Assembly (NCBI GenBank): GCA_964361705.1
Contig: CAYIBP010000002.1
Location: 12,435 to 76,434 of the forward strand
Reading direction: 5' to 3'
Source of the DNA: an uncultured Candidatus Saccharibacteria bacterium
Lineage (GTDB): Bacteria; Patescibacteriota; Minisyncoccia; Phycocordibacterales; UBA9973
Length of the DNA stretch: 64,000 nt
Under the pieces are notes generated by a model. The model saw only the letters and a program-made list of their open reading frames with translations, was not told the DNA's origin and ran no database searches. The translations under genes and the position numbers were made by a program. Positions 12,813-37,467 of the stretch are shown in pieces (position 1 is the first letter of the stretch; the number at the start of each line of letters is the position of its first letter).

Positions 12813-12876
12813 AATAGATTCTATTGTATCAGAGTCTTACATTTTTTTCAAAAAAATGATATATTCTTTTTTATCA

Positions 12877-12951
12877 GGCCTTATCGTCTAATAGTTAGGA
12901 CGGAAGCTTCTCAAGCTTCAAATCTGGGTGCGATTCCCAGTAAGGTCACCA
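12877..12951 (+). tRNA. tRNA-Glu (anticodon CUC), CCA encoded
   Basis: Cloverleaf folded by hand: acceptor GGCCTTA/TAAGGTC, anticodon loop TTCTCAA, T-stem CTGGG/CCCAG, then ACCA. Confidence 0.8.
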
Positions 12952-14671
12952 ACTGGTTTTCATCAGGCGTAAATCCTGAAGAAAGCTTGAACACATAGGA
13001 CAATTTAGGTGTTCCATTAACTACTTCTTTATAAGTAGGCATTTTTTCGAATACAAGACCGAACAGATCTCTTTGTACTCTTGGATTGCTTGGGTTTAGT
13101 AGTATTTCTGCTGGGTGTTCCATTATTTTCTTCGCATCTCGCATAAATGCCTTGATATCATCTCGAGATATCTGTATTTTATGGCGCTGGTTGCCTGCAG
13201 CTTTAATCTTTACTTCTAAGTCTTCAATTTCTTTTTCAAGCTTTTCTCGTATAACCTGACTTTTTGTTACTTCAAATGCTTCAAGCTTTGATACTTGTTG
13301 TATCTCTAGGTCTGCGATATTTTGGTGAATGTCGCCAGATGCCCTAACAATTTCCTTTTCTCGTTTCCTATATTTGTTTAAGAATGTTGCTTCTAGCCCA
13401 TTAAGTACTTCAGGGACAAACTTCAAACTTTTGATGTATTTCTCTACGTTATGGTCAAAATCTTTCTTGTTTACAGCGAACCTCTCATGATTTCGAGCAC
13501 AATGATAAGATGGAAATCCTTCACCCGACTTGCCTTTAGATACACTTCCCAAAAATGGCTTAGGGCAAAGTGGGCATAATATAAATTTATATGGGAATAA
13601 CGGGTTGAATTTCATTCTTTCTTTACCTGATCTCCCAAAAGGATATCCTTGTACTAGTTCTAGACTACCGTCGACATTTTTCATTATAGCCAACTTACCC
13701 TTATTCGCTTGATTAAAGAGCTCTATTGAAACAAGACCATCATATTGGGCCTTCACGGGTTTGTAGAATGTCCATTTTTCACAAAGTACACCAGCATAGA
13801 TTGTATTTACAATAATACGTTGAAGTTGTTTGACGGTAAGAGGAATTCCTCCTGTTTGGCCAATTATTTTTTTATGGTCTTTGCTGTATCTATCTTGAAA
13901 TGGGGAGCGATAGCCCATAGCATTTACTCTGTCCACAATCTCAGGATCGCTTAACCCTTGAGCTCTTAGTGTAAACATTGCAATATAAAATTTTGCTCGC
14001 TCGGGGTGTGGCAATTGAATGGTTTTCTTTTTTCCATCAACGAATACTTTTTTATTGGTGAATCCATCTGCTGGCCGACGAGCACGATAACCTTGTTGTG
14101 TGAGTCGAATCTCTTGTCCAATCATACGAGTGAGGATGCTAGTGACTTCTTGATTCGCAACAGTTGCTAAAACATTCTCTGTAATTTCACTAGGATGATA
14201 CTTACTCCAATCATATTCCATTCCAAGATTTTCAAGTGTGTTTATAGAAGGTTGTATAACGCCGTTAGTATCTATCATCGCAACTCCATATTTAGCGAGT
14301 TCTCTTTTCATTCTAGAATATTCTTCGCTTCCTGCACGTGTCGCTCGATCAATAGATTTGAAAACGTAATAATCAACCAATCTAGGATGAGCTTTTATGT
14401 ATACAAGTATATCCTCAAAATCTTCTCTATCTGTTTTTCTACCTGAAATGGCCGTAGACCAAACTTTTCCATTGGGCACAATATGCCAATCTCTATCAGA
14501 TATAAATTTACGAATATCACTTTCTTGTCGTTCTAAACTTTCACCGTCCTGTTGTTTCAGAGAGCTTACTCTACACTGAACGACACAATTTTTCTCTTTT
14601 TTATCGTTGATTTTCATAATAATTACTACTATCACATTATGCGCTATTTTTTTCACGAAGCCAATTGTCAA
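12911..14671 (-). CDS. Large serine recombinase (integrase). Its 3' end runs 41 nt into the 3' half of tRNA-Glu.
   Basis: Resolvase catalytic domain VVQCRVSSLKQQDGESLERQ...YVFKSIDRATR, a zinc-ribbon CPLCPKP...HCARNH and a coiled-coil. 586 aa. Confidence 0.85.
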   Translation of the reverse strand: MTIGFVKKIAHNVIVVIIMKINDKKEKNCVVQCRVSSLKQQDGESLERQESDIRKFISDRDWHIVPNGKVWSTAISGRKTDREDFEDILVYIKAHPRLVDYYVFKSIDRATRAGSEEYSRMKRELAKYGVAMIDTNGVIQPSINTLENLGMEYDWSKYHPSEITENVLATVANQEVTSILTRMIGQEIRLTQQGYRARRPADGFTNKKVFVDGKKKTIQLPHPERAKFYIAMFTLRAQGLSDPEIVDRVNAMGYRSPFQDRYSKDHKKIIGQTGGIPLTVKQLQRIIVNTIYAGVLCEKWTFYKPVKAQYDGLVSIELFNQANKGKLAIMKNVDGSLELVQGYPFGRSGKERMKFNPLFPYKFILCPLCPKPFLGSVSKGKSGEGFPSYHCARNHERFAVNKKDFDHNVEKYIKSLKFVPEVLNGLEATFLNKYRKREKEIVRASGDIHQNIADLEIQQVSKLEAFEVTKSQVIREKLEKEIEDLEVKIKAAGNQRHKIQISRDDIKAFMRDAKKIMEHPAEILLNPSNPRVQRDLFGLVFEKMPTYKEVVNGTPKLSYVFKLSSGFTPDENQLVTLLGIAPRFEA

Positions 14672-14870
14672 AAAATAGGTCTGCTATTCTGTCGCAGGTA
14701 ATTCGCATTTGCTCAATTTGTTCATCAGTATATTTACTACTTTCAGGACCTAGTGATTTTTTGAATTCTTCAAAAGATAATTCTGTGGAATTTGAAAATT
14801 CACCCGATCCATTATTCTCAGGAGTTACCTTGTGTTCATTTTTGGTGAATTTTTTGGGTTCGTATTTCAC
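14637..14870 (-). CDS. Hypothetical small acidic protein
   Basis: 77-aa ORF directly upstream of the recombinase gene. Confidence 0.3.
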   Translation of the reverse strand: MKYEPKKFTKNEHKVTPENNGSGEFSNSTELSFEEFKKSLGPESSKYTDEQIEQMRITCDRIADLFFDNWLREKNSA

Positions 14871-14990
14871 CCTTTATTTATATAAAAAAGAGTGCTACGA
14901 AATACATACATCGTAGCTACGATTCGTCAAATATAAGGCGTTAAATTTAATGACTATTTAATTTGCTATCAACAGTGACTGTATCGCACT

Positions 14991-15677
14991 TCATTCTTTT
15001 TTGATTTTTATTTTTTTATTGAGTTTGTAACCTTCACCTTGATTACTTTCAATAAATTCTTGTTCATTTAATCCAAATTCCTTTTCAGCTTTAATTCTCA
15101 ATTTTGCAATTTCTGTGCCGAGTGTCCTTGTGGTTGTATTTATCTTCTTAGCAAGTATATCGCTTTTTGTAAATTCTTCATTTTCAGAAAACCACTCAAG
15201 TATACGATATCGCACACCGTTAGGTTTAAATTTTAATGAACGTTCTTTACCTGAAATATTAGAATGCAAATCACGAGGTGTTAACCAGAAAACCCTTGAA
15301 GCAATCCTTGCATCTTGACTAATTGTCTTTTCAGAATATTTAATTTCCCAATATAAATTTGTTACATCTAAAGGTCTACCATTTTCTCCCATTATACCAA
15401 CTCTTGCGCCAAGTACATTTTGATCAGTAACCGTGGATGGTTTTATGGCTCTAATTTTAAAGCGTCCCGATGATTCTTTCTCAACAACAGAAATCGCCAA
15501 CAGTACATCATTCAGTTTTGATGATCTGAAAATATCAGAGTAATTTTTCACCAAATCGTCCCAAAAGTATAGCTTTAGGGTAATACCATCTCTAAGCTCA
15601 CCGACTACACTCAAATCATCAATTTTGCGCTCTAGGACTTCTAAGATAGCTCTTTGCCTTAGTATTGGGTCAACCAT
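14991..15677 (-). CDS. DNA-binding protein with a C-terminal OmpR/PhoB-type winged helix (Trans_reg_C-like). N-terminal domain unknown.
   Basis: C-terminus YRILEWFSENEEFTKSDILAKKI...TLGTEIAKLRIK...GEGYKL. Confidence 0.45.
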   Translation of the reverse strand: MVDPILRQRAILEVLERKIDDLSVVGELRDGITLKLYFWDDLVKNYSDIFRSSKLNDVLLAISVVEKESSGRFKIRAIKPSTVTDQNVLGARVGIMGENGRPLDVTNLYWEIKYSEKTISQDARIASRVFWLTPRDLHSNISGKERSLKFKPNGVRYRILEWFSENEEFTKSDILAKKINTTTRTLGTEIAKLRIKAEKEFGLNEQEFIESNQGEGYKLNKKIKIKKE

Positions 15678-15920
15678 TTCATTATTATTACACAGTTTTG
15701 TGTCTTTATGCTATTATTAAGCTTACAAATAAATAAGCGACCTAACCCCTTAAGATTTCTTGAGGATATGGTCAAAAGACCCATAGAAGATACTGAACCC
15801 TACGTTCAGCAACTCTTCTATGGGCTATACAGGGAAACTTGTATAGGGTCGTAAGACCTAGCTGGCGTGGGGTTCTGTGCTTCTCACTGCTAGCCATTAT
15901 CAGCTAGCTTTTTATTTTCT

Positions 15921-16781
15921 ATGAAAAACAAATTGAACATAATTTTGAGTATTTTAGTCGCATTTATTTTAATACCTCAAATAGCTCTTGCTTCTTGGTG
16001 GAATCCATTCACTTGGTTTAATAAAAATACTAAACCTGCTGTAGAACAAACTGTTCAGGTACAGCAAAATAATGTTTTAGTTGAAGATAAAAAATTAACT
16101 GAGAAAAAAGTTTCAGAAAATAAAACTCTTACTAAAAAAGTAAACAATACTGACAAAAAATCTAAAAAAGAACCCAACACTCCTAACATACCACAAGTGG
16201 TAATCACTTCAACTCCAACAGTTATTGATGTGTGTAAAAACATCAATGGAATTCAAACAAATGTTTCTAGTGATGTGCGCATAATAGATGACAGCATTTG
16301 CTTACCTATCCCCGATTTATGTAAAAATGTTGAAGGAGCTCAATCATCTTATATTCCTAAAGGAATGTACCGCGAAAAAGATGGCAACTGTTATCCAAAA
16401 CCCATAGAAATTTACCTTCCCGAACCACAACAAACCACACAAAACACAAACCCAGTATCTACGCCAGTCGTTTCACCAGTTGATACAACACCGAAAGAAA
16501 TAACTCAGGAAGAAATGATGAGTGGTTTTATATATCAGTGGACAAATAATGATGTTCATACGTTGTGGATTGCAACAGACGGAGCACAGAAAGGTGACAT
16601 TGTAACTTTATCTTTTAATAATCTTACTGAAACTAAGACTGTGAAAGATGTCTCAAGCAAAAATTCGATTTGGTCGGGATGGACTTTTGATAACCTCGAT
16701 TTCAGTAAAGAATATCCAGTGTTCATAAAAATAGAACGTGGAAATAAATTTACAGTCTTTAATGGTATTGTTAAAAATTAA
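15921..16781 (+). CDS. Secreted hypothetical protein with repeated CKN(I/V)xG(I/A)Q Cys motifs
   Basis: Signal peptide MKNKLNIILSILVAFILIPQIALA, followed by an S/T/P/Q-rich linker. Confidence 0.45.
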   Translation: MKNKLNIILSILVAFILIPQIALASWWNPFTWFNKNTKPAVEQTVQVQQNNVLVEDKKLTEKKVSENKTLTKKVNNTDKKSKKEPNTPNIPQVVITSTPTVIDVCKNINGIQTNVSSDVRIIDDSICLPIPDLCKNVEGAQSSYIPKGMYREKDGNCYPKPIEIYLPEPQQTTQNTNPVSTPVVSPVDTTPKEITQEEMMSGFIYQWTNNDVHTLWIATDGAQKGDIVTLSFNNLTETKTVKDVSSKNSIWSGWTFDNLDFSKEYPVFIKIERGNKFTVFNGIVKN

Positions 16782-16853
16782 ATTTATACTAGGATTTCTA
16801 TATGCAATCAATAAAAATGATATTATTGATTTACCCACGACAACTTAAATATA

Positions 16854-17366
16854 ATGAAAAAATTCTTTAGCGATAAAAATAAAATAGTACTGTCTCTTAT
16901 TGTTGTTATAGCTTTCTTATCCCTTAATTTATCTTTAACAGCTATATTTATTTCTAATACATCTCATGAAATCGAGCAAGAAACCGAGATTGAATCTATT
17001 GCAATAAAAAATCCCTGCATGGCAGATGGTAAATCCAACCTTGAGTGGATCGCCTGCGAAAAAGATTTTTTAGTGATGATTAAGAAAGAAAAGGAAAGAT
17101 ACTTTGATAAGTTGATGAACTTGTTTACGAATAATTCAGAAAAGATGTTGGCCAACGATTCAGAACTGCTAAAAGAATTTACTGATTGGTATGAAAATTC
17201 CAATAACGCTAACCATACAAGGTGTCTGGCCGAAATGTATTACACTCGCGCCGGTTCTGCTTACGAAGGTAATATGACACGTTGCCAGTCTAGTGAAGCA
17301 CAACGAGACATTGAATTACTTAATAAAAATTTTGATTTTCTTTTCGATTCATACGATTATGAATAA
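16854..17366 (+). CDS. Secreted or membrane-anchored protein, possibly DUF1311/LprI-like
   Basis: N-terminal TM/signal sequence. Paired Cys with W/Y/R pattern (WIACEKD...DWYEN...TRC...EGNMTRC). Confidence 0.35.
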   Translation: MKKFFSDKNKIVLSLIVVIAFLSLNLSLTAIFISNTSHEIEQETEIESIAIKNPCMADGKSNLEWIACEKDFLVMIKKEKERYFDKLMNLFTNNSEKMLANDSELLKEFTDWYENSNNANHTRCLAEMYYTRAGSAYEGNMTRCQSSEAQRDIELLNKNFDFLFDSYDYE

Positions 17367-17598
17367 TAAATTAATCTAAAAACTAGACATGGGAATACTT
17401 AGCGTTTTATTGGTAATAGTTTGGATAGTTCTTCGCTCTATGGGGTTAATCCACATGCCTTGGGATAAATAAATTAGACAAAGTGTAATAATAATGGCAC
17501 CAAACTCGTGACCTTGTGTAACCTCGGGGATTACGGCTCATAAATGGGGTAAGGTGGCACTTGCTTACAAATCTCACCACCCCTCGGTAAATTGCCGT

Positions 17599-18201
17599 TT
17601 ATCGTTTGACGAGGATTCTTTTCTGCATATTTTTGTATATCTTATCTTCGTACTCATCAAGTAGGGCCTGATCTTCCTTGTCGATTTCCTCGTCTTGAAT
17701 ATTTTCAACAACAAGGCGAGTCTTATTCATTTCTTTTTCCATATGTTCAAGATATCGCCAAGAGTCGGGGATATTTTTATTATTTTGAATAGATTCTGCT
17801 ATATTTCGCCTAGCCCATAATTTTAAATTGCTTTCTCGGGTATTTTCTACTTCTTCAGCAAATTCAAGATCACTCTCCATGATATCGTCATACTCTTTTT
17901 CGGTCAGTTTATTGGCATGCAAGCGTTGCTCGTTAACGGGAGCTCCAATTAGTGCAGCTTCCTTAATTTTCGTTCTTCTAAAATCGGTCAATAATTGGGC
18001 TAATTCGTCCCGTAGTTCAGGAGTTTCTTGTAACCATCTGTAGTAGGTCGTGGCACCAATTCCTGCATATTCATATTGCTTTTTTGGTCTTTCGCCTCGG
18101 CCAGCCATGTCTTTCAACTTCGGAACACTCACGCAACGCTCTTCTCGCATGGATTCAGAGATTTTTTTGTTTATTTTTGATCGTTTTGTGGGCCTAGGCA
18201 T
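17599..18201 (-). CDS. HTH DNA-binding protein with a phage terminase small-subunit-like N-terminus
   Basis: MPRPTKRSKI...YAGIGATTYYRWLQETPELRDEL resembles small-terminase/HTH N-termini, followed by an acidic C-terminal half. It is the last gene of the methyltransferase-GHKL operon. Confidence 0.45.
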   Translation of the reverse strand: MPRPTKRSKINKKISESMREERCVSVPKLKDMAGRGERPKKQYEYAGIGATTYYRWLQETPELRDELAQLLTDFRRTKIKEAALIGAPVNEQRLHANKLTEKEYDDIMESDLEFAEEVENTRESNLKLWARRNIAESIQNNKNIPDSWRYLEHMEKEMNKTRLVVENIQDEEIDKEDQALLDEYEDKIYKNMQKRILVKR

Positions 18202-18222
18202 CTAAGTAAAATAAAAAACAGA

Positions 18223-20211
18223 TTAAATTTCCGAGTCGTCCTCAATATCTTTTACGAGTGTCATTAATTTACCAACCTCTCTATCTTGATCAAGAAAAGC
18301 AGAATATTGCTTATAGGCATTATTTATAAGTTCTTGATATAGAACAACTCGAATTTTTGCAGCCTTGAGTATCTCTATGGATTGGTTTGTGTCTTTTTCA
18401 TCATTCCATTCCTGAAGCTTTTCTCCAACAATACAAATACATTCAATTGGCTCATTTCCACTTCCAATTTTATCCAGTAACTTCTGTAGAGCGGACTGGT
18501 ATTTTTGTAGTTGATCCACTATTTCAGTAGTTCGAAGGATTCGATTTGATCTCTTGAGCTCAATAATGATATGTTTGCCTGCAGAATTTTTATATTTAAT
18601 ATCAATTCGTCCCTTCTTTTCCTCATCTGTTAATTTTGCATCGATTTTACCAAATGCACTTTTGACTGTTTTCTCCATTACAGGTGTCTCGGTTGCTCTG
18701 TCCCACGCAGAATCAAGAAGCCATAAATTTTCGTATAAATGTTTTTGAACCAATTTCTCCAGAGCATTTGAAGTTACTTTATCTTCAAGCTTCTTTATAA
18801 TTTCAATTCGAGCCCTAACGATTTGGTGATACAAAGTAGCCTCAATATCATTATGTTCAGCAAAGAGTTCACTAAATAAGGCTATGTTTTCGGGAGTGAT
18901 ACGATCAAGTGCTTCAAGATTTTCCTTATATCTAAGGCTTTCAAAGGCCAGTACAGCATGTTTAAATAATGTCTTTTTTTCACTTTCTTCAATAGTAAAC
19001 TGATTGATTTTCCCAAACAAATCTTCGGCGCGCTTTTTAGTTGGTTTCTTCAACGTATCAAACCAACTCTTAATAGCTTTATTTTTAAGAGCTTCTTTGA
19101 CCCCAATTTCTTTTCTATTTTCAGTCCATTGTTTTTGGATATGTTTTAACTCTTTTTGTACAAAAACTTGAAGTGCTTTATAACGGTCAGCATCTTTATT
19201 TATTTCTTGTCTATTTGTTGTTGCAATATCTTCCTCATTATCAAGGTCAAGAAAATCAGCATGAATTTCTCCTATTAAATATTTAGTATATACGCCACCT
19301 TCTGAAAAATCTTCAATAATATCTTCTTGTGCAAGTTTGCCGCGAACCATAACTACAATTTTATTTATATTTTCATCTTCATCCTTTAAATCACCTGAAC
19401 CAGTTACTGTACCTATCCAACCACTAACTTTGTATTTTTTACCAGAAACAATGATTTCATTTGACCGTTTTTCTTTCTTAAGTAGTTTTGTTTTGTCGCA
19501 AAGATCTGAATATTTTTTACTATCGTCACCGAAATACCAAATGTACTGAATTTTATGAAAATAATCACGATCAGTAACCTTCACTTCTCCGCCATCAATT
19601 TTTACAGAAAAATTATACTCCTTACCTAATACACTGAACCTTCTTGCAATTCTTTTCTTTAGAGCTGGTACAGTTGCTTTTGTAATGCTTTTTTTTAGTT
19701 GAACTAGGGTAATTTTTGTTCCACTGCTTGTTAATGTAATTTTATTATCTTCCACAGGGTCAGGATTGTATTCCTTTTCAGCAGTTTTACCGTCAAGAAG
19801 TTCCATGATTTTTTCATGAGATAGGATCAAGCCGTTTTTTTCTTTACCATTGTTAGTTTCAATAGTTGCCTTATTTGCAATTGAAAATAGAGATAATTTC
19901 CCGATACCTTTTCTACCCATAACACTTCTTTTGTATCTTGGAGTTTTACTAACTTCTTTCCTTTTTTCGTAACCAACAAAAAGATATCTCTTATTAATAT
20001 CTGCCAAAGACATCCCTTGTCCATTATCTTCAAGAACAATTGAATCCTTCTCAATATTTATGCTTACTTCACTCGCATCGGCATCCCATGAATTTGCGAT
20101 TATCTCTGATAAAACCGAAGGGATGTTGCTGTAAAGCTTGATACCGAGTTGGTTCAAGACGTTCAATCCGATGGTCATTTTATATTTTGGATCAATGGGT
20201 ATTTTAGTCAT
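18223..20211 (-). CDS. GHKL (HATPase_c, MORC/MutL-like) ATPase with a C-terminal PD-(D/E)xK-like nuclease domain. Putative restriction component.
   Basis: Bergerat-fold motifs EIIANSWDA (N-box), DNGQGM (G1) and GRKGIGKLSLF (G2). C-terminus DIKYKNSAGKHIIIELKRS. Confidence 0.7.
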   Translation of the reverse strand: MTKIPIDPKYKMTIGLNVLNQLGIKLYSNIPSVLSEIIANSWDADASEVSINIEKDSIVLEDNGQGMSLADINKRYLFVGYEKRKEVSKTPRYKRSVMGRKGIGKLSLFSIANKATIETNNGKEKNGLILSHEKIMELLDGKTAEKEYNPDPVEDNKITLTSSGTKITLVQLKKSITKATVPALKKRIARRFSVLGKEYNFSVKIDGGEVKVTDRDYFHKIQYIWYFGDDSKKYSDLCDKTKLLKKEKRSNEIIVSGKKYKVSGWIGTVTGSGDLKDEDENINKIVVMVRGKLAQEDIIEDFSEGGVYTKYLIGEIHADFLDLDNEEDIATTNRQEINKDADRYKALQVFVQKELKHIQKQWTENRKEIGVKEALKNKAIKSWFDTLKKPTKKRAEDLFGKINQFTIEESEKKTLFKHAVLAFESLRYKENLEALDRITPENIALFSELFAEHNDIEATLYHQIVRARIEIIKKLEDKVTSNALEKLVQKHLYENLWLLDSAWDRATETPVMEKTVKSAFGKIDAKLTDEEKKGRIDIKYKNSAGKHIIIELKRSNRILRTTEIVDQLQKYQSALQKLLDKIGSGNEPIECICIVGEKLQEWNDEKDTNQSIEILKAAKIRVVLYQELINNAYKQYSAFLDQDREVGKLMTLVKDIEDDSEI

Positions 20212-21277
20212 AGATGTTTACGTGCTCCTTTATACTTCTTCCAATAATAGACCCGAGTCTTACTGGCACAGCATTGCCGATAAATTTAGCAACCTTGCCT
20301 ATTTGAATTGGTTTTGTTGGATCTGAAAATTGATATTTTTGAGGAAATGTTTGAAATATAGCTGCTTCTCTCAAGCTTATTGCTCTATCTTGTGTTGGAT
20401 GCCCATATCTGCCATTTCCAAGACCCACACATTGTGTTGTCATGGTTGGCGAAGGTTCGTCCCAGCGCATACGACCGTAAACAGAACCGCGATAAGTTTT
20501 TCCTGATTTTTTTTTATGACATTCTAGTATTAATTCTTCGCTCCAGCTTTCTGAATTACCTCCATCGTGAGGAGTAGCTTTTATTCTTTTTAGATTAATA
20601 GGAGCAAGTTTTCTTGATCGATGCAATGGGTCTCTTTTACTAATTTCTCCATTTTTAATAGGCTCTAAGTGTGTAATGACATCACGAACAGTTACCCGCT
20701 TGTTTTTATGTGTTCTTTTAATTAATTGAATTTCACCAAATTTAGAAGCAAGTAATACAAGTCTTCTCCTTTTTTGTGGTACTCCAAATTCAGACACATC
20801 AACAATTTCGTATTTGTAATTATAATTGTTCTTATCAAGAACTCTCAAAAAGTTTGCAAACGCGGGGTATTTATTCTTAACAGCGAGATCACTGACATTT
20901 TCCATTGAAACAATATCTGGTTGGGTTTCAGAGATTAGCTGTGCAAATTTTCCTAATGGTTCAAGCTGTTTTTTTGTAATAGAATTAAGATTTAGTCTTG
21001 AGAATGGTTGACAAGGTGCACATCCTGCGAGCACTCGTATTGTTTCTTTTTTATCTCCAAATAACCTATCTATTTTTTCTGCTGTAACATTTAGAATATC
21101 TTCATCAATAAATTGTGTTTTATTATTGTATTCATACCCGAATTTACAGCTCGAATCATTATCAATTCCAGCCACTACATCAAGACCTTCTTTTATGAGT
21201 CCATGAGTTAGTCCTCCTATTCCACAAAATAAATCAATAACCTTTATTTTTGAAGATTGTAATTTCATTTGCATCAT
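20204..21277 (-). CDS. dcm: DNA (cytosine-5)-methyltransferase
   Basis: Motif I DLFCGIGG, motif IV PCQPFS and ENV. Overlaps the GHKL gene by 8 nt. Confidence 0.85.
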   Translation of the reverse strand: MMQMKLQSSKIKVIDLFCGIGGLTHGLIKEGLDVVAGIDNDSSCKFGYEYNNKTQFIDEDILNVTAEKIDRLFGDKKETIRVLAGCAPCQPFSRLNLNSITKKQLEPLGKFAQLISETQPDIVSMENVSDLAVKNKYPAFANFLRVLDKNNYNYKYEIVDVSEFGVPQKRRRLVLLASKFGEIQLIKRTHKNKRVTVRDVITHLEPIKNGEISKRDPLHRSRKLAPINLKRIKATPHDGGNSESWSEELILECHKKKSGKTYRGSVYGRMRWDEPSPTMTTQCVGLGNGRYGHPTQDRAISLREAAIFQTFPQKYQFSDPTKPIQIGKVAKFIGNAVPVRLGSIIGRSIKEHVNIYD

Positions 21278-21448
21278 AATTATATCATTTATATCTCTTA
21301 ATAAAAAGGGTATCTTTAGTAGACGGGGACCCTCAAACTTCCTAATTCTACTATGTTATTTTGGCCTTAATAGCTCTTTTGTTAGTTCAGGGATTCAATC
21401 AAGAGAAACCGAAAATGATTTGGGGGGTTAAAATTTTACTTGACTAAT

Positions 21449-21468
21449 AATAGGTGTTAAACACCTAT
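21449..21468. promoter_or_regulatory. Perfect 20-bp palindrome AATAGGTGTT|AACACCTATT, adjacent to a TTGACT hexamer, in the 525-bp ORF-free region upstream of dcm. Candidate operator.
   Basis: Read directly from the sequence. Lies 172 nt upstream of the dcm start, on the divergent side of the 21803 gene. Confidence 0.3.
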
Positions 21469-21802
21469 TAGGGTAATATTGAAAATGTCTTTTATTCCCT
21501 TTATTATTGCGTTATAGGGGCAAATGGCGTGTTAAGGTAGCTTGGGTCTATCATACGAAACACGGTTTTCCAGTTTAGAATCATACTTTCAATGGTGTTC
21601 CATTTGAGGTACAATGGGCTCACCAAATGAAACTTGGTAGTTGAAAAGAAACAGGACTATCTTTTCGGCTTCAGTCTGTTTTGTTTAAGCCTCCAATGCT
21701 ATAATCTCTCTAATGGAAATTATGCTAAAAAATTTAGGACTCATCGGAAACAATAGCACTTCTCACGACCACAATATTGGCAATAATTTATAAGAAAAAG
21801 AT

Positions 21803-22243
21803 ATGACACTTTCAACGCATTTTTTACTTGGTGCCATTATAGGAAAAGTGACAGGAAACTACGCAGTAGGCATTGCGTCTTCAGTACTTGTTGATATTGA
21901 CCATCTACAGTCTTATTTTACCCATGGACTTCTCTTGAAACCGAAGAAATTATGGAAAGCCCTTACCGACCAAGTAGACCCCTATAAAGACCAGAGAGGA
22001 ATACTACACAATGTGTTATTTTTTGGAGTTGTTGCTGCGGTTCTCATATTTCTTTTTCATAAAATAGGAATCATTATTGCTATAGGATGGTTTGGCCATT
22101 TATGTCTCGATGCCTTTGATAACTCTGATTATTATCCGCTCTACCCAAATATGTCAATTAACATTCGAGGTCCTATTAAATACGGAACATTACAAGAACT
22201 TATATTCTTCCTGGTTCTTGTAGTTGTTTATTTTGTTATTTAA
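21803..22243 (+). CDS. Membrane-bound metal-dependent hydrolase (DUF457/YdjM-like)
   Basis: LLGAIIG...VDIDHL...GHLCLD His/Asp-rich TM segments. Confidence 0.55.
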   Translation: MTLSTHFLLGAIIGKVTGNYAVGIASSVLVDIDHLQSYFTHGLLLKPKKLWKALTDQVDPYKDQRGILHNVLFFGVVAAVLIFLFHKIGIIIAIGWFGHLCLDAFDNSDYYPLYPNMSINIRGPIKYGTLQELIFFLVLVVVYFVI

Positions 22244-22274
22244 GTTGTGATAATTAACAGTGTCCTATAACTAA

Positions 22275-22718
22275 TTGAGTAAATACTATTTCTTTGTTAT
22301 TCATTTAGACAAGGTTTACTACCCAAATCCATTTAGCTGGAAACATATAGAAAACCGAGATGAATGGAAACAGAAAGTCCGAGAGTTGGTGTCTAGTGAC
22401 AGATGGATTATTGATGGTCATTACAATAGTACTTTGAATATTCGAGTACCTCGAGCAAATACTATTATTTTCTTTAATTTTAATAAAATTTTGTGTCTCT
22501 ATAGAGTATGCAAAAGAGCGATGAATAAAACCCAACCATTTGATAAAGCAGAGGGCAATTTTAATCGTCTATCTTGGAATCTTATAAAAAAGATAATAAT
22601 CTTTTCTCAAAAGAAAGTTTGGGGGCATTTGGAACCTCACAAAGATACAAAGAAAATATATGTGGTACATAACAGCAAAGAGACAGAAAAGCTACTGCTC
22701 GAGTTGATTGAAAATTAG
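22275..22718 (+). pseudogene. 5'-truncated FlaR-like (topology-modulation / AAA P-loop kinase-like) gene lacking the Walker A region
   Basis: FVIHLDKVYYPNPFSW...DRWIIDGHYNSTLNIRVPRANTIIFFNFNKILCLYRVCKR matches the distal part of the FlaR family. The in-frame stop TAA at 22272-22274 and a TTG start leave no room for the P-loop. Confidence 0.5.
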
Positions 22719-23212
22719 AGAATCTTTTCTAAAAATATCCTATGTTCTTTTACCGTATTCTCCGGTATTTCTTTAAAGAATCTTAAATCTCGTGCGTTTT
22801 CGTCTTTTCTTAATTCTCCGCCCAAAATGCTGGTTTCAAGCACTATGCTGATAGTGTGGACTTCGCCTCTTATGCTTGGATCTTTTTTTGCGTTTCGTGC
22901 TTCGTGAGGAAACTCCATATAGCCGAGGCATTTTTCAAATTTCACATCGAGACCTGCCTCTGCCTTTGCTACACGAACAACTGCATCACTTATCAGTTCT
23001 TCTTTGTATACAGTGCCACCTATTAGATTCCACTCATTGAGACAAGGTTCTTCATTTCTTAGAGCAAACAAAATACCATCATCTGATTTTATAACCAAAT
23101 CAACATTGAGACGTGGTACTCTGGTATAAATCTGGAAAAATTCTTCGTCGCTTAGATAATTTTTATGCATACAGGATTTTAGCACAAAACATTTATGCTT
23201 TGCAAAATTCAT
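22715..23212 (-). CDS. NUDIX hydrolase
   Basis: Nudix box GGTVYKEELISDAVVRVAKAEAGL. Confidence 0.75.
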   Translation of the reverse strand: MNFAKHKCFVLKSCMHKNYLSDEEFFQIYTRVPRLNVDLVIKSDDGILFALRNEEPCLNEWNLIGGTVYKEELISDAVVRVAKAEAGLDVKFEKCLGYMEFPHEARNAKKDPSIRGEVHTISIVLETSILGGELRKDENARDLRFFKEIPENTVKEHRIFLEKIL

Positions 23213-23343
23213 ACTGCTATGATTATGGCGCGGTCGTGTGTTAATAATAGTAATAGTAATTGAATTTAGTAATTTAATTTATCTAGTAAAAATTACTTCA
23301 GATAGCTATCAAACCAAATAGCGTGGTATCGGTAAAGTTAATT

Positions 23344-36889: not shown

Positions 36890-36964
36890 TGGTGACCCTA
36901 CTGGGAATCGCACCCAGATTACCAGCTTGAAAAGCTGATGTCCTAACTATTAGACGATAGGGCC
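36890..36964 (-). tRNA. tRNA-Glu (anticodon UUC), CCA encoded
   Basis: Reverse complement gives GGCCCTA...anticodon loop TTTTCAA...T-arm CTGGG TGCGATT CCCAG...TAGGGTC ACCA. A terminator-like hairpin (agccca-gcag-tgggct) lies 3' of it, at 36863-36878. Confidence 0.8.
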
Positions 36965-37163: not shown

Positions 37164-37250
37164 GGAGGCGTGGCTGAGTGGTTGAAGGCACCGGTTTCGA
37201 AAACCGGCATTGGGGAAACCTAATCGTGAGTTCAAATCTCACCGCCTCCG
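37164..37250 (+). tRNA. tRNA-Ser (anticodon CGA), long variable arm, CCA not encoded
   Basis: Acceptor GGAGGCG/CGCCTCC, anticodon loop TTCGAAA, variable arm ATTGGGGAAACCTAAT, T-arm GTGAG TTCAAAT CTCAC. Confidence 0.8.
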
Positions 37251-37467
37251 CAGTTTGAAACGCAGTGAGAACTGCGGAGGCGAGCAAGCAAACTGCTTTG
37301 CTTGCTTGTGAGGTTTGAACGACGGAATGTCATTTTTTCAACAGAAAAAATGCATGAGTCGGTGGCTAGACCAAAAATTTCTGACGAGAAATTTTTGAGT
37401 CAAAGCCAAATCTTACCACCTCCGCAGAAAAACGAATTTTCAATTTTTAGAATACACCCCATAAATT

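Follow-up and report, generated by a model that had tools for sequence, protein, structure and literature searches.

In this study we analysed a tRNA-Glu(CUC) gene, the gene of a large serine recombinase (LSR) that runs into it from the opposite strand, and the genes that follow. They lie in 64,000 nucleotides (nt) of contig CAYIBP010000002.1 from an uncultured Candidatus Saccharibacteria bacterium, and this whole stretch is called the window here. An earlier note, made from the sequence alone, had proposed that an integrated element sits at this tRNA. Beyond the recombinase we find a small acidic protein, a putative helix-turn-helix (HTH) regulator, a LOOT RNA, two secreted or membrane proteins, a restriction-modification (RM) module and three further genes (Table 1). 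The cargo that the note had listed was all recovered, from the acidic small open reading frame (ORF) and the winged-helix or HTH regulator, for which the match is weak, to the two signal-peptide proteins and DUF457. Positions are those of the window, and labels such as L100 are our handles for the loci and contigs compared with it.

Table 1. Coordinates of the features discussed in the text (aa, amino acids; att, attachment)
Feature	Position	Strand	Basis or remark
tRNA-Glu(CUC)	12877-12951	+	ARAGORN; Rfam tRNA 59.9 bits; proposed integration target, attL side
Large serine recombinase, 568 aa	12911-14617	-	ATG at 14617; 586 aa if TTG at 14671
Antisense overlap of LSR 3' end and tRNA 3' half, 41 nt	12911-12951	both	sequence reading
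Putative att core, T-loop to tRNA 3' end	12932-12951		placed by analogy with L026, L066, L069, L072
Stretch in window, not at L100 empty site, 10.4 kb	12961-23341		blastn synteny; 3' side of tRNA
77-aa acidic protein	14637-14870	-	directly upstream of LSR
228-aa putative HTH regulator	14991-15677	-	weak HTH_11 match
LOOT RNA (Rfam RF03000)	15739-15859	+	82.4 bits, gathering threshold 46.4; model positions 1-121 of 121
Secreted/membrane protein, 286 aa	15921-16781	+	N-terminal hydrophobic signal sequence
Secreted/membrane protein, 170 aa	16854-17366	+	N-terminal hydrophobic signal sequence
200-aa protein without assigned family, part of RM module	module 17599-21277	-	
BbrUII/HgiDII-family type II endonuclease	18223-20211	-	NCBIfam NF050001 764.7 bits, cutoff 550
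Dcm C5-methyltransferase	20204-21277	-	TIGR00675; PF00145 DNA_methylase 3.3e-55
ORF-free region, 525 bp	21278-21802		several assemblies break at ~21342-21350
23-bp palindrome (11+1+11), TAATAGGTGTT-A-AACACCTATTA	21448-21470		between divergent promoter-like hexamers
YdjM/DUF457	21803-22243	+	
FlaR-like 'DNA topology modulation' protein, 147 aa	22275-22718	+	first ~27 residues missing
NUDIX	22715-23212	-	
tRNA-Glu(UUC)	36890-36964	-	ARAGORN

Recombinase genes that run into tRNA genes

ARAGORN and Rfam both call the tRNA, and the sequence itself shows the arrangement described in the earlier note, a recombinase on the opposite strand that reads 13 codons into the 3' half of the tRNA. The final LSR codons, ...NQLVTLLGIAPRFEA*, are the reverse complement of 12911-12955, and the stop codon TGA, which falls on 12911-12913, overlaps with the anticodon CTC (12910-12912). 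With this stop on the anticodon loop, the final 13 codons read the 3' half of the tRNA in antisense. The length of 586 aa given before is that of the ORF counted from the TTG; public gene calls and the alignment of homologues favour the ATG instead. The tRNA encodes its CCA (12949-12951), which is not present at the empty site of L100 described below. Within the tRNA, Logan contigs of separate sequencing runs break off exactly at 12897 (island side) and at 12923 (host side), and no repeat accounts for these ends.

By sequence and by fold the protein is a large serine recombinase. It has Pfam matches to Resolvase (PF00239, 9.8e-13) and Recombinase (PF07508, 5.2e-6), a PHROG match to integrase (6e-38) and a match to the TP901-1 catalytic domain (1.5e-8). 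A 40-sequence alignment shows conservation of the catalytic RVSS motif at R16 and S18, and the zinc-ribbon residues C348, C351, C373 and H377 are invariant in it. The earlier note had named a disrupted catalytic serine as a sign against an island; the nucleophilic serine is intact. The AlphaFold model (mean pLDDT 77) has beta-hairpins at residues 346-383 and then long helices at 402-481, and its four best PDB matches by Foldseek are full-length serine integrases (9dxf, 9dxd, 9rah and 4kis; E 1e-15 to 8e-8). Recombination of attP with attB is its putative activity.

The overlap recurs throughout a family. A protein search gave more than 380 LSR homologues at 49-84% identity, mainly from Patescibacteria. 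Most of them end in LVTLRGIEPRF, LVTLPGIEPGLTA or LVTLQRIEL, which are antisense readings of the CCA end, acceptor stem and T-arm of a tRNA; the GIEP of such tails is the reverse complement of GGTTCGATTCC. We collected 79 loci from species-representative genomes and could determine the ORF end in 71. The LSR ORF ends inside a convergent tRNA at 52 of these and reads through one at 5 (together 57/71), while 3 contigs end in a tRNA-type tail, 2 loci have a degenerate tRNA-like tail and 9 have no tRNA. Among the 52 tRNAs, Glu-UUC accounts for 23, Glu-CUC for 12, Lys for 6 and His for 4, and Trp, Tyr, Gly, Asp, Leu, Arg-UCU and Arg-CCU occur once each; the read-through cases comprise two Trp and three Arg tRNAs. 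The ORF always meets the tRNA 3' end in one and the same frame, in which the T-loop gives G[IFLV]EP, and the tRNA type goes with the recombinase clade. An encoded CCA was considered as a mark of tRNA ends supplied by an element and set aside as not decisive (27/52 recombinase-linked tRNAs vs 19/54 others).

Empty site and attachment site

We searched homologues of RmuC, which is encoded on the left flank, and looked up their contigs for the state of the site. L100/L101, with an RmuC 89% identical, have tRNA-Glu(CUC) next to RmuC and, after 135 bp, msrA-murE-PBP-ftsL-mraW-mraZ. This is the empty site, with the tRNA joined to the msrA side, that the earlier note had proposed to look for. The tRNAs of L100 and the window are identical over 73 nt and split right after ...GGTCAC, from where L100 reads AAAACC... 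and the window CAACTGG.... By blastn synteny L100 11105-11222 equals window 12842-12960, and L100 from 11343 equals the window from 23342. An island next to or in the tRNA, as first proposed, is therefore supported by L100, whereas the proposed size of about 9-10 kb falls short: the stretch of 10.4 kb extends beyond 22718 and contains NUDIX as well as YdjM/DUF457 and the truncated FlaR-like gene, all of which L100 is without. The comparison of composition suggested in the note gave a tetranucleotide deviation of z = 2 to 5.3 for scan segments between 13.75 and 23.75 kb and baseline values on both sides; the GC content of the deviant region is 0.33-0.36, against 0.376. A second stretch that is not in L100, 11581-12841 between RmuC and the tRNA, holds three small genes (129, 140 and 114 aa), so that the 5' side of the tRNA is variable as well.

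Other relatives have other cargo and no recombinase. L104 carries 1.7 kb of unrelated cargo at the same tRNA, L102 carries 4.2 kb, with a degenerate tRNA-end fragment ~330 nt downstream, and L108 a DUF5343 + HEPN pair. In L106 TraG/VirD4-like genes stand beside RmuC, and ARAGORN found only an unreliable tRNA-SeC and no tRNA-Glu. Such different cargo at one site marks the 3' side of the tRNA as a hotspot, with msrA as the conserved right flank. Downstream of tRNA-Glu(CUC), L102 (~13400) and L104 (~7480) share a conserved sequence of ~50 nt (GGGCTGGAAAATTTGCTTTCGACG.AAAG.AAATTATTGTGGCTCACA), which in L102 is preceded by the degenerate tRNA 3'-end fragment. Between RmuC and msrA/murE, tRNA-Glu(CUC) and its 3'-side cargo occur in both orientations (L108 7438-7510 and L034, L089 and L027, as compared with L100 and the window), and this suggests that the whole tRNA-plus-island block may have been inverted.

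Where the far end of an element can be recognised, it carries a copy of the tRNA end. Exact or near-exact direct repeats of this end lie beyond the cargo: 19/19 nt at a distance of 9.1 kb in L066, 16 nt at 5.3 kb and directly after folE in L026, 15 nt in L072, and 18 nt with further copies in L069. Weaker candidates are seen in L022 and L033. In the control, shuffled queries never did better than 4 mismatches in 16. The repeats all begin at the tRNA 3' end and stop within the T-loop; hence the segment from T-loop to 3' end would be the common core of both attachment sites, and the exact crossover position is one that we infer.

The loci without a tRNA give a hint as to the other partner of the reaction. 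Eight of the nine, mostly outside the Patescibacteria, share the tail '...G[FL]xWNTIExxIxxW'. This native C-terminal motif is kept in L111, whose recombinase is 76% identical to that of the window and does not lie at a tRNA. L112, a Logan contig of 17 kb (SRR11006471), also holds a native-tail LSR copy away from any tRNA. Its neighbours are a DnaG-like primase, SymE, NYN, CBASS (CD-NTase + Cap15), a LexA-like protein and Replic_Relax, a context that looks like a plasmid or another mobile element. The codons LVxxxG[FL] before the native motif align with the tRNA-derived LVxxxG[IF], and the DNA there resembles a tRNA 3' end. This suggests, as a hypothesis, that the attachment site might lie inside the LSR gene and that integration might swap the native tail for a tRNA-encoded peptide. 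No coding remnant of a native tail was found at the far end of L026, L066, L069, L072 or L111.

LOOT RNA and the genes of the proposed island

The LOOT RNA of the window matches its model over the full length. A promoter scan gave a promoter-like site upstream of it (15689-15717), and a terminator-like hairpin follows (15889-15908), with 12 nt between it and the gene of the 286-aa secreted protein. Rfam found LOOT in 6 of the 7 relatives tested. We then built a covariance model from the Rfam LOOT matches and applied it to the 67 loci with at least 3 kb of upstream sequence, where it detected the RNA in 27 (L021, L023, L024, L026, L028, L031 and 21 others), at distances of 0.4-7 kb from the recombinase. 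All 27 occurrences lie on the cargo side (P about 3e-8), and the first ORF 3' of LOOT in the same direction almost always starts with a signal peptide or a transmembrane helix. The orphan motif LOOT is a regular component of the LSR elements. The paper that is reported to have described this RNA does not treat it in its main text.

Directly upstream of the LSR, homologues of the 77-aa ORF were found by tblastn at 21 loci. The protein, which has no Pfam, PHROG or PADLOC match, may serve as a directionality or accessory factor of recombination. The conserved core module thus consists of the recombinase, the 77-aa protein and the LOOT RNA together with the membrane or secreted cargo behind it. 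L021 and L026 have homologues of the 228-aa HTH protein in the same place. Cargo other than the core module is not conserved between loci; that of L066, for example, comprises ThiF/E1, Prok-E2 and an ImmA-like peptidase. The 286-aa and 170-aa secreted proteins of the window have no family match in Pfam, NCBIfam or PHROG.

What the earlier note had called an RM-like operon is a true type II restriction-modification system of the HgiDII type, with an endonuclease that scores far above the family cutoff. Its endonuclease and methylase genes overlap by 8 nt and are called REase_II and MTase_II by PADLOC. The FlaR-like gene is 5'-truncated, as had been noted, and the ORF-free region with its palindrome is present too, the palindrome measuring 23 bp in place of the 20 bp first given. 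The region has no Rfam match at the gathering threshold; a terminator-like hairpin on the + strand at ~21650-21690 suggests an unannotated transcript.

The locus also varies within its population. Exact-protein look-ups trace the window to groundwater metagenomes from Hainich (wells H51 and H52), and twenty public contigs from several samples are 98.5-100% identical to it, all but one at least 99.6%. In one assembly of this population (L001, sample ERZ1292617) the change GGA>TGA at window position 14065 hits the invariant Gly185 of the LSR and splits it into ORFs of 190 and 355 aa. To the left of 21282, at the start of dcm, the strain variant L018 has 32 nt (L018 1-32) that are not in the window, and two contigs of one sample abut at 21342-21350. 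From these breaks the RM module appears to vary independently of the LSR core module.

Probable origin of the island and related systems

Taking these results together, we consider it probable that 12.95-23.3 kb represents a genomic island, whole or as a remnant, which the LSR encoded at its edge integrated at the 3' end of tRNA-Glu(CUC). As a mechanism we propose a Patescibacteria-wide LSR family whose attachment site would overlap the 3' end of its own gene and imitate the terminal ~20 nt of a tRNA (T-loop to 3' end). After recombination with a tRNA gene the tRNA would still be intact, its 3' end now coming from the element. The LSR ORF would then read antisense into the host part of the tRNA up to a stop, in tRNA-Glu in the anticodon loop, and convergent transcription of the tRNA might dampen the expression of the recombinase. 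A wider picture is possible but rather doubtful as a whole: small elements found across the Patescibacteria would use tRNA genes as attB and carry attP within the 3' end of the LSR gene, the swap of the tail would act as a switch of activity or directionality, the LSR would stay under convergent tRNA transcription, and LOOT, as a regulatory RNA belonging to the element, would control the membrane or secreted cargo. The window would then be the first known example of such a class.

Several observations weigh against an integrated island. Between 12961 and 23400 the window contains neither a displaced tRNA fragment nor another recognisable far-end site. We searched with exact and 3-mismatch patterns, 14-mer scans, gapped local alignment against shuffles and general repeat finding, and the best local alignment scored 16, the shuffled range being 16-22. 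The far boundary is thus as invisible as the earlier note had found it, but its explanation, that this is expected of 2-bp cores, does not suffice in view of the direct repeats of 15-19 nt in several relatives. The att half-sites that the note hoped to see as inverted repeats did not emerge above chance; the pairs I3 and I5 were rejected as AT-rich or lying within genes. About 90% of the related loci are also without a tRNA fragment within 10 kb, so the assignment of the att core draws on 4-6 loci. An exact scan of JGI metagenome contigs with a 17-nt block of L063 that includes the CCA gave 74 matches, none in a tRNA gene and one in a recombinase gene; a true tRNA 3' end in a non-integrated member is therefore unsupported for this member from outside the Patescibacteria, in a scan that required an encoded CCA. 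All 20 population contigs are integrated, with no excised circle or empty site among them in exact-protein look-ups, and no near-identical copy of the element was found in another genome, the closest recombinase being 84% identical. The recombination activity of the island is itself a prediction.

Some of these points would suit a recombinase that is resident or domesticated and stably tied to tRNA genes, such as a DNA invertase or resolvase acting on a tRNA-proximal segment, with the variable genes having come by other routes. Most loci, including the window, have no far-end att remnant; the tRNA-plus-cargo block occurs in both orientations (L108 vs L100 and the window; order murE, tRNA, LSR in L034, L089 and L027); L028 and L069 contain inverted tRNA-end fragments; and relatives hold other cargo at the same tRNA without a recombinase. 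We regard such an enzyme as improbable all the same. The recombinase is patchily distributed, with an empty site in the relative whose RmuC is 89% identical, its clades sit at different tRNA species, and family members occur on a plasmid-like contig as well. In L026, L066 and L072 direct repeats bracket units of 5-9 kb that include the recombinase, and the protein has the fold and the domain set of an integrase, including zinc ribbon and coiled coil. It is harder still to see the region as a degraded prophage, a very unlikely origin in spite of the PHROG integrase match and of the superinfection-immunity-like small membrane proteins and ImmA-like peptidase of some relatives. Five non-recombinase proteins (the core-module cargo and the 200-aa protein) have no PHROG match, no virion, packaging or lysis family was found in any protein of the region by Pfam, NCBIfam or PADLOC, and the relatives that can be delimited are only 5-9 kb long. 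Among 2.9 million viral contigs of IMG/VR there are only 2 relatives, which is not what a typical prophage would show. On the PHROG and IMG/VR results we rejected the prophage; the tRNA-targeting LSR elements are small islands. The overlap might finally be an accident of ORF calling, with no stop before the tRNA, and the island be defined by the tRNA hotspot alone and not by the LSR. In its favour, the AlphaFold model predicts disorder for the tRNA-encoded tail (residues 558-568), and tail sequences vary with the tRNA, but this explanation is scarcely credible, because the same overlap in constant frame at 57 of 71 loci, in different species and with at least 10 tRNA types, cannot be coincidence.

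We therefore prefer an integrated island, which in the window is probably composite and stranded, made up of the LSR core with LOOT, the HgiDII-type module and the group of YdjM, truncated FlaR-like gene and NUDIX. The window copy would no longer be able to excise as a unit, because it shows no far-end site and is a composite with an independently variable RM module and a pseudogene, and because a nonsense allele of the recombinase circulates in the population; the displaced repeat would have been lost, or never kept.

The closest known enzymes are the serine integrases of phages and integrative and conjugative elements (phiC31, Bxb1, A118/LI, TP901-1). With them the window LSR has in common the domain set of catalytic serine, recombinase, zinc ribbon and coiled coil, the fold (phiC31, 9rah; LI, 4kis; also 9dxf and 9dxd) and the position of the gene at the edge of the element beside the attachment site. 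Only the catalytic domain is detectably related by sequence, however, and the family differs in targeting a tRNA gene and not a protein-coding gene or intergenic site, in an attachment site that overlaps the LSR ORF, and in its home in small non-phage elements of Patescibacteria. In contrast to the minimal 2-bp core of the known integrases, some elements of the family are flanked by a tRNA-identical block of 15-19 nt. In papers of 2015 and 2020 serine integrases were described as not targeting tRNA genes, such use being essentially unreported (PMC4383910, PMC7192596). Mageeney et al. (2020) placed 14 of 297 serine-integrase candidates at t(m)RNA genes, a use not reported before, and called for experimental proof (PMC7192596). 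In the literature that we searched on serine recombinases, tRNA and Patescibacteria/candidate phyla radiation we found no description of this tRNA-targeting family.

Islands at tRNA genes are otherwise known from the Islander work, where integration into the 3' part of a tRNA restores the gene, as it would here (T-loop sublocation, Williams 2002). Those islands use tyrosine integrases, whereas the only recombinase present here is of the serine family. Of the Islander signature the window has the intact tRNA with an adjacent integrase gene, and L100/L101 provide the empty site in a related genome; the displaced 3' fragment is seen in L026, L066, L069 and L072 and not in the window. Mx8 is a true phage with a tyrosine recombinase, and its target is a tRNA-Asp gene. 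Its IntP may offer an analogy to what we propose for the window family: attP lies inside the integrase coding sequence, and integration gives int a new 3' end and another C-terminus (PMC6070905). In the window family the new C-terminus would come from the antisense strand of the tRNA itself. The phiRSM-type enzymes of filamentous Ralstonia phages are small and resolvase-like, and they have none of the recombinase, zinc-ribbon and coiled-coil domains of the window LSR. phiRSM itself inserts at a tRNA-Ser gene. These small recombinases are cited in PMC7192596 as serine-family site-specific integrases.

Large DNA segments are inserted mainly with serine integrases, and an extensive natural family with clades specialised on tRNA 3' ends would bring a new logic of attB and attP, and it would allow tests of how the conserved and partly symmetric T-arm of a tRNA is read. 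The C-terminal swap, if real, would be the serine-recombinase counterpart of the IntP/IntX switch of Mx8. Patescibacteria have tiny genomes and almost no genetic tools; the family may be a common and easily recognised sign of gene flux there, and it suggests candidates for integration vectors. The orphan LOOT RNA gains a genomic home and a testable role.

The second tRNA-Glu(UUC) reported in the earlier note is indeed present in the window. Over 18 nt at the 3' end it has one mismatch to tRNA-Glu(CUC), which lies in the opposite orientation. As a partner site, for an inversion or for an element of 24 kb, it was rejected on the interval between them, which holds the dcw cluster and is collinear with the empty-site relative. 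Together with tRNA-Ser(CGA, 37164-37251 +) it forms a pair that is unoccupied in the window and that related recombinases occupy in L026, L044, L056, L058, L075 and L079.

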